Shown: positions 18,220-19,177 of the stretch, in pieces
Position numbering within the stretch: the stretch's first letter is position 1
How the letters are laid out: each line of letters starts with the position of its first letter
Origin: Escherichia phage Ec_Makalu_002
Sequence record: MN709127.1
Strand: one strand, 5' to 3'
Length of the DNA: 64,000 nt
Translations under genes and position numbers: made by a program
The notes under the pieces: model-generated
Databases searched by the model: none
What the model saw: the letters and a program-made list of their open reading frames with translations, nothing else
What the model was told of the DNA's origin: nothing

Positions 18220-18579
18220 TTAGTCACGGGAAGACAACCCAGCCATAAAACGGCTTAACAGTGTGTCGCGATAAGCAAAGCATAATTGCTTATCAGGGGC
18301 AGTATCACACAGGTTACGTTTTGTTTTAGCAAAGCTGGCAATACTCAGATCCCACGCTCGATTTTTTCGTTTTTCATCTCGGCCTTGTTTATAGGCTTCG
18401 TCGAGTTCAAGTGCGATAAAATCGCTACACATGTTATCATTATCACAGAAGGTTTTAATGATCTTTTTGTTGATCTCAAACCCTTTATATTCGAACTTTG
18501 GATAAGGGCGCTCATTACTAGCAAGCGCACCAGCAGAGAGCATCATAGCAATCATAGCAATTACTGTCAACTTTTTCAT
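18220..18579 (-). CDS. secreted protein with signal peptide
   Basis: 119 aa; MKKLTVIAMIAMMLSAGALA signal peptide. Confidence 0.5.
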   Translation of the reverse strand: MKKLTVIAMIAMMLSAGALASNERPYPKFEYKGFEINKKIIKTFCDNDNMCSDFIALELDEAYKQGRDEKRKNRAWDLSIASFAKTKRNLCDTAPDKQLCFAYRDTLLSRFMAGLSSRD

Positions 18580-18586
18580 AGATTCC

Positions 18587-19177
18587 TCAATAGCGTTTAG
18601 TTTTAAGAATGCCTTTACTCTTTAGATGGTTAGCCTTTTTTAGTACGTCATCAGCATAACCTAACCCGGCTTTATAGTTCCATCCTGCATTGTAAGAAGC
18701 TAGCGCGAGTCGGATATTACCGTTTCGAACATCCAGCCAGTATGCCAACTCATCCATCGCGTAGAATGCAGAAACCTCGCGATTCATGATAAAGTTGATA
18801 GTCTGGCGATCACTCATTTTAACACCGCGCTTTGCATTTTTCGCTTTCACCGTTTTAAGGTAATTTTGAAATAATCCATAAGCATGATGATTTTTCTTTG
18901 GTGCTAAGTTTGCACCCGCGCTTGATTCTTGCCATGCGATACCCGCCAGGATGTGGCCTAAACCCTTTCCGTTATAGCGAATATTCGGATGGTACTTTTT
19001 CAACTTACCGCTTTTCTCGAATTGCTCGCCGTATTGATAAGCGAAATGTAAATTATCTAGTTGGTGTGCTGTAAAGTTGTCTATCGGCGCTTTTTTGATC
19101 GGTGCGCTAGTCGATGCGTGTGTAGCACCAACGGCTAGTGACAGACTCAATACTATCGCTTTTAGAACTTTTAACAT
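18587..19177 (-). CDS. secreted lytic transglycosylase (SLT-domain)-like protein
   Basis: 196 aa; signal peptide; AWQESSAG catalytic-Glu motif and ASYNAG motif. Confidence 0.55.
   Translation of the reverse strand: MLKVLKAIVLSLSLAVGATHASTSAPIKKAPIDNFTAHQLDNLHFAYQYGEQFEKSGKLKKYHPNIRYNGKGLGHILAGIAWQESSAGANLAPKKNHHAYGLFQNYLKTVKAKNAKRGVKMSDRQTINFIMNREVSAFYAMDELAYWLDVRNGNIRLALASYNAGWNYKAGLGYADDVLKKANHLKSKGILKTKRY

Follow-up and report, generated by a model that had tools for sequence, protein, structure and literature searches.

The vs.1–vs gene pair of Escherichia phage Ec_Makalu_002: a predicted exported lytic transglycosylase and a predicted exported neighbor

Lytic transglycosylases of family 1 (GH23/SLT) have a lysozyme-like fold and are recognized by a glutamate in an E-S motif that is followed by G-L-x-Q and x-Y-N-A-G. 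Small single-domain members of the PF01464 family, such as MltE (EmtA) of Escherichia coli, are about 20 kDa in size, exported, and contain one SLT domain, and 'specialised' family-1 enzymes, among them VirB1, IagB, IpgF, P19 and EtgA, belong to secretion and conjugation systems. Here, we analyzed the gene pair vs.1–vs of Escherichia phage Ec_Makalu_002 in a stretch of 64,000 nucleotides (nt) from sequence record MN709127.1 (the window, to which all coordinates refer unless another locus is named). According to the open reading frame (ORF) list of the window, both genes are on the minus strand, vs.1 at 18587–19177 and vs at 18220–18579. The two ORFs exist where a first-pass annotation of the letters had placed them, with the strand left unmentioned.

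The closest functional precedent that we found for Vs.1 is Tgl of the Kayvirus phages of Staphylococcus, a lytic-transglycosylase-like auxiliary lysin that has a cleavable signal peptide, is secreted by the host Sec system, is driven by an early-type host promoter and is encoded apart from the main endolysin (PMC7150955). Tgl functions in a Gram-positive host and resembles IsaA and SceD, and its muralytic activity has been demonstrated by experiment (PMC7150955), whereas that of Vs.1 is predicted. The virion-associated lytic transglycosylases of the T7 gp16 class (PHROG 342 and 2013) show weak SLT similarity to Vs.1 (E ~2e-3 to 4e-3), but these are domains of large structural proteins that have no signal peptide and act from outside at injection, whereas Vs.1 is small, early and predicted to be exported from within. 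The T4 antiholin RI and the spackle protein Sp, which, unlike Vs in the periplasm, have defined partners (holin T and the gp5 lysozyme, respectively), are small phage proteins with an N-terminal periplasmic signal and resemble Vs in this regard, although neither has sequence or fold similarity to it. The signal peptide of RI is described as cleavable in a 2021 paper (PMC8385771).

Ec_Makalu_002 is an RB49/JSE-like Krischvirus, i.e. a T4-type myovirus. DNA comparison of the 2.1 kb surrounding the pair gave 99.7% identity to Escherichia phage Ec_Makalu_001 and approximately 97.6% identity to JSE and RB49. The gene order in the window, rI – tk – small ORFs – tk.4 (macro domain) – vs – vs.1 – regB, is the same in T4 and JSE, where the syntenic genes are named vs and vs.1. 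The genes of T4 (vs.1, NP_049725, P13311; vs, NP_049724, P13310), RB49, JSE and phi1 resemble the present pair in their sizes and in their position between regB and tk.4, and their products share signal-peptide-like N-termini, the SLT motifs and four cysteines. ORF 18587–19177 encodes a 196-residue precursor matching PHROG 600 ('unknown function', E = 1e-59), and ORF 18220–18579 a 119-residue precursor matching PHROG 1256 ('valyl tRNA synthetase modifier', E = 3.9e-33), to which PF26829 is also assigned by precomputation. By sequence, the two ORFs are orthologues of T4 vs.1 and vs, with ~52% identity to T4-type Vs.1 in tblastn over residues 35–192 and ~29% identity between T4 Vs and the Vs of the window. 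The gene pair is thus essentially known already: the genes are named and widely annotated, the SLT similarity of vs.1 has been published by Nolan et al. in 2006 with citation of an earlier PSI-BLAST analysis of T4 (PMC1524935), and some GenBank records carry secretion signals, e.g. that of Acinetobacter phage Berthold, in which vs.1, vs and the next two genes are marked 'putative periplasmic secretion signal'. As a genome feature, two named and conserved T4-type genes are ordinary. What is at stake is whether phages remodel murein early and from within, and whether the 'Vs' annotation may need revision.

The interpretation that we prefer, and to which we give slightly better than even chances, is that vs.1 and vs form a pre-replicative, translationally coupled pair of Sec-exported proteins, in which Vs.1 would be a periplasmic lytic transglycosylase and Vs its envelope partner. 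Vs.1 is predicted to be an exported family-1 (GH23/SLT) lytic transglycosylase by Pfam, PHROG, synteny, AlphaFold2 (AF2) modeling and Foldseek, and Vs a small exported helical protein by PHROG 1256, PF26829, synteny, BFVD and AF2.

The Pfam SLT profile (PF01464) matched residues 76–167 of Vs.1 with 25.8 bits against a gathering score of 21.3 (E = 8.1e-6), and a precomputed PF01464 assignment was present in nine of the 23 Vs.1 homologues returned. An alignment of 22 homologues with 40–89% identity showed that all three family-1 motifs are kept in Vs.1 and that the invariant residues are those of the motifs. Motif I, AWQESS (18920–18937, minus strand), contains the predicted catalytic Glu84 (codon 18926–18928), and E84 and S86 were invariant. 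Motif II, YGLFQN (18863–18880, minus strand), equals the GLMQ motif of SLT family 1 and has Tyr100, Gly101, Phe103, Gln104 and Asn105 as invariant residues. In motif III, SYNAG (18683–18697, minus strand; AYNAG in SLT family 1), Ser161, Tyr162, Ala164 and Gly165 were invariant and Asn163 was conserved in at least 90% of the sequences. The strings GIAWQESSAG and LASYNAGW, from which the first-pass annotation had read its SLT-type motifs AWQESSAG and ASYNAG, are both present. Since the Pfam match exceeds the gathering score, the PHROG 600 match has an E-value of 1e-59 and the motif residues are invariant, the SLT similarity is beyond chance. Alignment by hhalign paired E84 of Vs.1 with E505 of the Slt70 precursor (E478 of the mature protein) and with E64 of MltE, the catalytic glutamates of these two enzymes.

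The AF2 model of Vs.1 had a mean predicted local distance difference test (pLDDT) score of 83.9, and its helix 74–85 places E84 at the C-terminal end. When the model was compared with the PDB by Foldseek, ranks 1–13 were all lytic transglycosylases (probability 0.94–1.0); the matches included MltD, Pseudomonas aeruginosa Slt, E. coli Slt70 and Cj0843 (probability 0.91–1.0) and LtgA (0.69). As modeled, Vs.1 has a goose-lysozyme-like alpha-helical fold. It differs from the family-1 enzymes in that it is phage-encoded, is unlinked to a transport machine and has an extra N-terminal helix (residues 37–50 of the model), and, unlike MltE, it is not a lipoprotein. The predicted mature protein has approximately 174 residues, a mass of 19.7 kDa and a pI of 9.9.

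To identify export signals, we used a crude rule-based filter that asks for Lys/Arg in the n-region, an uncharged hydrophobic core of 10 residues and a small-x-small cleavage site. Four of the 85 window ORFs of at least 80 residues passed: the rI orthologue, which served as the positive control, vs, vs.1 and one dubious case. Both vs.1 and vs products displayed the n/h/c layout of a type I signal peptide, for which an uncharged core of 10–15 hydrophobic residues is expected, and, by the same rules, no further transmembrane segment, in agreement with the signal peptides noted in the first-pass annotation. The N-terminus of Vs.1 reads MLKVLKAIVLSLSLAVGATHA up to the predicted cut, followed by STSAP, and that of Vs reads MKKLTVIAMIAMMLSAGALAS, followed by NERP. 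The Vs.1 signal peptide, MLKVLKAIVLSLSLAVGATHAS, comprises residues 1–22 (19112–19177, minus strand), with the cut predicted after HAS or THA; that of Vs comprises residues 1–21 (18517–18579, minus strand).

The signal layout is kept while the sequences diverge, in seven genera and in both proteins. Orthologues from T4, Jiaodavirus, Gelderlandvirus, Lazarusvirus, Bragavirus and Roskildevirus all have M-K/R-K, a hydrophobic core and A-x-A; 30 of the 33 distinct Vs.1 relatives from IMG/VR passed the filter, and the Vs.1 homologues of Vi01, Ackermannviridae and Felixounavirus have N-termini of the same kind. All 19 aligned Vs homologues have the export signal, despite its variable sequence. In one Vs homologue from the representative library (P0034), a lipobox, LSGC (LLIVFALSG-C), replaces the A-x-A site, suggesting that members of the family are sometimes lipid-anchored, which is sensible only for an exported protein. 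Taken together, these findings support the presence of conserved Sec-type signal peptides on both products, and their cleavage is predicted. A signal-anchor-release (SAR) endolysin has an uncleaved, weakly hydrophobic N-terminal transmembrane domain rich in Gly, Ala and Ser, which leaves the membrane upon depolarization, whereas the core of the Vs.1 signal, LKAIVLSLSLAV, is rich in Leu, Ile and Val (Kyte–Doolittle value 2.63) and is followed by the THA/HAS site. This composition and the site favor a cleaved signal, although cleavage is a prediction here. The vs.1 coding sequence of Aeromonas phage 25, as deposited (L010 2621–3154), starts at an internal Met, has no signal peptide, and runs into unrelated sequence at its 3' end; it is probably a start misannotation or a frameshift rather than a cytoplasmic variant.

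An alignment of 19 Vs sequences with 23–60% identity showed that the only invariant positions are Met1, two glycines and four cysteines. In the window, the cysteines form the pattern C-x5-C ... C-x8-C at 18280–18447 (minus strand), with C45 at 18445–18447, C51 at 18427–18429, C91 at 18307–18309 and C100 at 18280–18282, and they align with the cysteines of T4 Vs. The AF2 model (pLDDT 79.6) has a mature domain of four helices with the cysteines at the helix ends, and from this secondary structure we infer that the cysteines probably form two local disulfides that staple the helix ends. The predicted mature Vs has approximately 98 residues and a mass of 11.5 kDa, compared with 11.0 kDa for T4 Vs. 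T4 Vs expressed at full length with a His tag in E. coli came out insoluble (PMC8076793), as might be expected of a secreted protein with disulfides, although this is no proof.

No PDB match to the Vs fold was obtained by Foldseek, and a profile search of PDB sequences was likewise empty. A BFVD fold search returned only Vs proteins (S16, IME340 and phi25-307, one of them T4-type, probability 1.0). Exhaustive HMMER searching of 1.84 billion representatives found 15 proteins, all of ~85–135 residues, compared with five in a word-indexed search, and no cellular homologues were apparent among these representatives. By these sequence searches, the Vs family is very small and seems to occur in phages only. 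A Foldseek hit to 3gi7 (E = 8) raised the possibility that Vs is a lysozyme inhibitor of the LprI/DUF1311 type. This candidate was rejected: none of the 19 Vs homologues matched PF07007 at any E-value up to 10, and hhalign of Vs with the PF07007 member YecT of E. coli aligned the signal peptides alone, with a probability of 0.7%.

At the vs.1–vs junction (18580–18589, minus strand), the sequence shows a gap of 7 nt, and the TGA stop codon of vs.1 overlaps the Shine–Dalgarno sequence GAGG of vs, an arrangement predicting that the two genes are translationally coupled. Searching IMG/VR with the Vs.1 profile yielded 69 loci; loci with Vs but without Vs.1 were outside this systematic sampling. A Vs homologue was present in 38 of the 69, and in all 38 it started between −8 and +7 nt from the vs.1 stop. 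By tblastn, Vs.1 was found in 2085 phage records, including Straboviridae, Ackermannviridae and Felixounavirus, and the window's Vs in 354. Very many large virulent myoviruses have thus retained an exported lytic transglycosylase of this predicted kind.

A third conserved ORF with an exported appearance, here called X (130–146 residues, a signal peptide and a W-E/N-K-L-P-G-Y motif), directly follows vs in 12 of the IMG/VR loci. It occurs in many Straboviridae, giving a vs.1–vs–X run of predicted periplasmic proteins; examples among the relatives are L003 2740–3132, L004 2824–3225, L005 2830–3255, L006 2779–3219 and L007 2815–3231. By tblastn, X has no counterpart in the window, nor is there one in T4, and it has no Pfam match.

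Upstream of vs.1, the 85-nt spacer from regB contains a sigma70-type promoter-like site, TTGACT-17-TATTAT (19212–19240, minus strand), with 10 of 12 consensus matches. The number of promoter-like sites in the region was not above chance, and only the position of this one is suggestive. T4 differs in having an 8-nt overlap and no regB–vs.1 spacer. A MotA middle promoter was considered and rejected: there is a TGCTTGA core, but its distance from the −10 element is 17–19 nt, whereas MotA boxes are spaced 11–13 nt from it. As the core is too far away for a MotA box, the site was read as an ordinary −35/−10 pair. No late-promoter box TATAAATA was found near vs.1 or vs, the nearest on the same strand being at 16433–16440 in front of rI. 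In time-resolved omics of T4, vs and vs.1 are both classified as 'early RNA, middle protein' (PMC9697503, supplement). The promoter-like site, the lack of a nearby late box and the T4 timing support expression of the pair before replication and apart from the endolysin, and the early expression assumed in the first-pass annotation is therefore upheld.

The fitness contribution of the T4 genes can be judged from a transposon screen, HIDEN-SEQ (preprint, Data S8). There, vs and vs.1 are both classed as non-essential. The mean insertion counts in LB (lysogeny broth) were 26.6 for vs and 22.6 for vs.1, compared with 290 for tk.4, 179 for regB and 652 for vs.3, so that insertions in the pair were about 10-fold rarer than in these three genes even in LB, a point on which the text of the preprint is silent. 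In M9-glucose, vs was the most depleted gene of all (log2 fold change −2.19, adjusted p 0), and vs.1 gave a log2 fold change of −0.87 (p 0.0055, adjusted p 0.155). The low insertion counts suggest that each of the two genes is of some benefit to the phage on plain K-12.

Gene identity and motifs, the fold class, the export features and the strict coupling of the genes are what this analysis shows; on that basis, the preferred interpretation would work as follows. Once its signal peptide of about 22 residues is removed, Vs.1 would be a small periplasmic lytic transglycosylase of family 1 with a single domain, in which Glu84 at the helix end serves as the acid/base. It would cut the MurNAc-beta-1,4-GlcNAc (N-acetylmuramic acid–N-acetylglucosamine) bond, leaving 1,6-anhydroMurNAc ends, and would depend on neither a holin nor the M15 endolysin. 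Most probably it would thin or remodel murein to a limited extent during infection, adding fitness and aiding final lysis. Vs would be exported together with Vs.1, would fold into four helices held by two disulfide staples (about 11 kDa in all) and, as a modulator or partner, may contribute to what Vs.1 does in the envelope. The plural 'murein-active proteins' of the first-pass annotation stands for Vs.1, by homology, and falls for Vs, which is annotated as a valyl-tRNA synthetase modifier and is more than the ORF with a signal peptide only that it was taken for. Injection-associated wall remodeling by the incoming virion, another role proposed there, is unlikely, since nothing that is synthesized in the infected cell with a cleavable signal peptide can be part of the virion. 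On the other two roles raised there, superinfection exclusion and lysis timing, the present evidence is neutral.

Several observations weigh against the interpretation that we prefer. The Foldseek figures for Vs.1 were modest (E = 7e-3 to 0.12, TM score 0.37–0.49), and a profile search of Vs.1 against PDB sequences gave no matches at E ≤ 1. Since the latter search was empty, the fold assignment rests on AF2, Foldseek and the motifs together, and the two results identify Vs.1 as a diverged member of the family. In our literature search, we found no published enzymatic, localization or cleavage data on Vs.1 or Vs from any phage. Vs.1 occurred without Vs in 31 of the 69 IMG/VR loci (Aeromonas, Vibrio, Ackermannviridae and Felixounavirus, the more distant Vs.1 relatives), and Vs is therefore not required for Vs.1 to work. 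Moreover, T4-type genomes often have unrelated genes tightly abutting, and the depletion of vs.1 insertions in T4 could be mere polarity on vs. Finally, in later summaries of the classical work, T4 Vs binds the cytoplasmic valyl-tRNA synthetase, which is hard to square with a location in the periplasm.

This last point leads to the strongest rival explanation, namely that Vs is a cytoplasmic peptide of ~10–11 kDa that binds the host valyl-tRNA synthetase, that its hydrophobic N-terminus is unused or only partly used for export, and that vs and vs.1 are mere neighbors. We regard this as possible but doubtful. The annotation derives from T4 genetics and biochemistry, as quoted in later papers, and the T4 vs knockout is, in the HIDEN-SEQ data, specifically defective in minimal medium, where aminoacylation and amino-acid supply matter. 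Against it, the export signal is found in 19 of 19 homologues, one homologue has a lipobox, the only invariant side chains are the four cysteines, and the adjoining vs.1 and X products are also predicted to be exported in many relatives. The 15 relatives among 1.84 billion representatives also reveal no detectable link to any synthetase-binding fold. Variants in which Vs has a dual localization, or in which an internal start (Met12/Met13 in this phage) shortens the hydrophobic core, are equally tentative, and in T4 Vs residues 2–98 include no Met. The tau peptide of the classical T4 work is reportedly about 10 kDa, close to the mature masses predicted here (11.0 kDa for T4 and 11.5 kDa for this phage), and it may well be the vs product. 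If it equals Vs of mature size, the purified factor would be the processed form, which would be outside the cytoplasm unless some stays inside; a processed-size mass would imply passage through Sec and signal peptidase, to the wrong side of the membrane.

The 'Vs' label is more than 50 years old and is found in hundreds of phage genomes, and it is contradicted by the sequence features of Vs. A bolder proposition, which we advance only tentatively, is that the protein labeled 'valyl-tRNA synthetase modifier' is in fact exported by Sec to the periplasm, carries two disulfide bonds and works with Vs.1 on the envelope, that its association with the synthetase arises after cell breakage or is minor, and that the defect in M9 is an envelope or murein phenotype. 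To the HIDEN-SEQ authors, the modification of valyl-tRNA synthetase has no known biological role.

The possibility that Vs.1 is a second, holin-independent endolysin, restrained in the periplasm until it joins the M15 peptidase at terminal lysis, as proposed for Kayvirus Tgl, appears unlikely. The muralytic fold and motifs, the export signal and the Tgl precedent itself (PMC7150955) are in its favor, as is the fact that Felixounavirus homologues are annotated 'putative lysin'. However, vs.1 is outside any lysis cassette, is made early, and in T4 is classed as non-essential in the HIDEN-SEQ data. T4 lysis genetics is already accounted for by e, t and the spanins, and we know of nothing that would restrain the activity of Vs.1 for ~20 min. 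Nor does Vs.1 resemble a canonical holin-dependent endolysin, which accumulates in the cytoplasm and is expressed late from a lysis cassette, since it has a signal peptide, an early-type promoter and no late box, its T4 orthologue gives early RNA, and an M15 endolysin is encoded elsewhere. The latter, at 22429–22818 on the minus strand, is separate from the pair, as the first-pass annotation held, and matched Peptidase_M15_4 (4.4e-12) and the endolysin family PHROG 465 (7.5e-69). Unlike T4, which has an e-type lysozyme, this phage has an M15 metallopeptidase as its endolysin, and it thus pairs a peptidase endolysin with a predicted exported, glycan-strand-cleaving Vs.1.

Another reading gives the pair a task at the envelope, directed at competing phages or at the envelope defenses of the host: it could serve superinfection exclusion (also raised by the first-pass annotation), protect against lysis from without or clear a periplasmic barrier, with Vs.1 modifying the murein and Vs binding a host or phage target in the periplasm. 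Both this reading and the division of labor within it seem improbable to us. Both proteins are predicted to reach the periplasm early in infection, in which they would resemble T4 Imm and Sp, and Vs is small, fast-evolving and phage-restricted. The pair also sits among counter-defense genes, one of them vs.4, which we take to be Acb2. The other is tk.4, the product of which was named AdfM in T4 and shown to counter DarTG2 defense in a 2025 preprint. Yet in the two HIDEN-SEQ comparisons considered here, that with RexAB and the control of two independently made libraries, no significant effect was seen for vs or vs.1, and the fitness cost of insertions appears on plain K-12 in LB and M9, which speaks for a function in ordinary infection rather than defense evasion.

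The weakest explanation, that Vs is a periplasmic protein dedicated to inhibiting Vs.1 or giving immunity to it (compare Ivy, MliC, PliC, LprI and T4 Spackle), so that loss of vs unleashes Vs.1, agrees with a small, predicted exported and disulfide-bonded protein encoded immediately downstream in translational coupling, and with a T4 vs defect in M9 that exceeds the vs.1 defect, but we consider it very unlikely, as vs.1 insertions, for which an antidote model predicts neutrality, were under-represented too in the screen, Vs has no likeness to LprI/DUF1311 or any solved inhibitor fold, and many phages have Vs.1 without Vs. A toxin/antidote reading of vs/vs.1 found no support in the HIDEN-SEQ data, because vs.1 insertions were themselves depleted.

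Some features of neighboring genes were also recorded, all of them on the minus strand where a strand is given. Directly downstream of vs, ORF 17749–18204 (minus strand) encodes a macro-domain protein that is the orthologue of T4 tk.4 (Pfam Macro, 7.6e-7; a weak match to the NCBIfam antitoxin DarG). The orthologue of the rI antiholin, at 16097–16399 (minus strand; PHROG 1246), has a signal-peptide-like N-terminus and is 2 kb from the pair. Adjoining the M15 endolysin, the region 22847–23849 (minus strand) contains five tandem ORFs of 54–88 residues whose very hydrophobic products resemble one- or two-pass membrane proteins. Nolan et al. reported predicted transmembrane segments in a run of small ORFs of RB49, 103c–112c (PMC1524935).

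The genes nrdC.11 (20544–21275) and vs.6 (21329–21745) are adjacent in the window, and the gap 21276–21328 between them contains no insert; in JSE, a homing-endonuclease gene (L002 9559–10089) is located between the two. The regB ORF, listed at 19263–19727 (minus strand), has a TTG start and 154 codons, whereas the JSE gene is 423 nt long and matches an internal ATG (METINVH...). The true regB start is probably ~42 nt downstream of the listed one.

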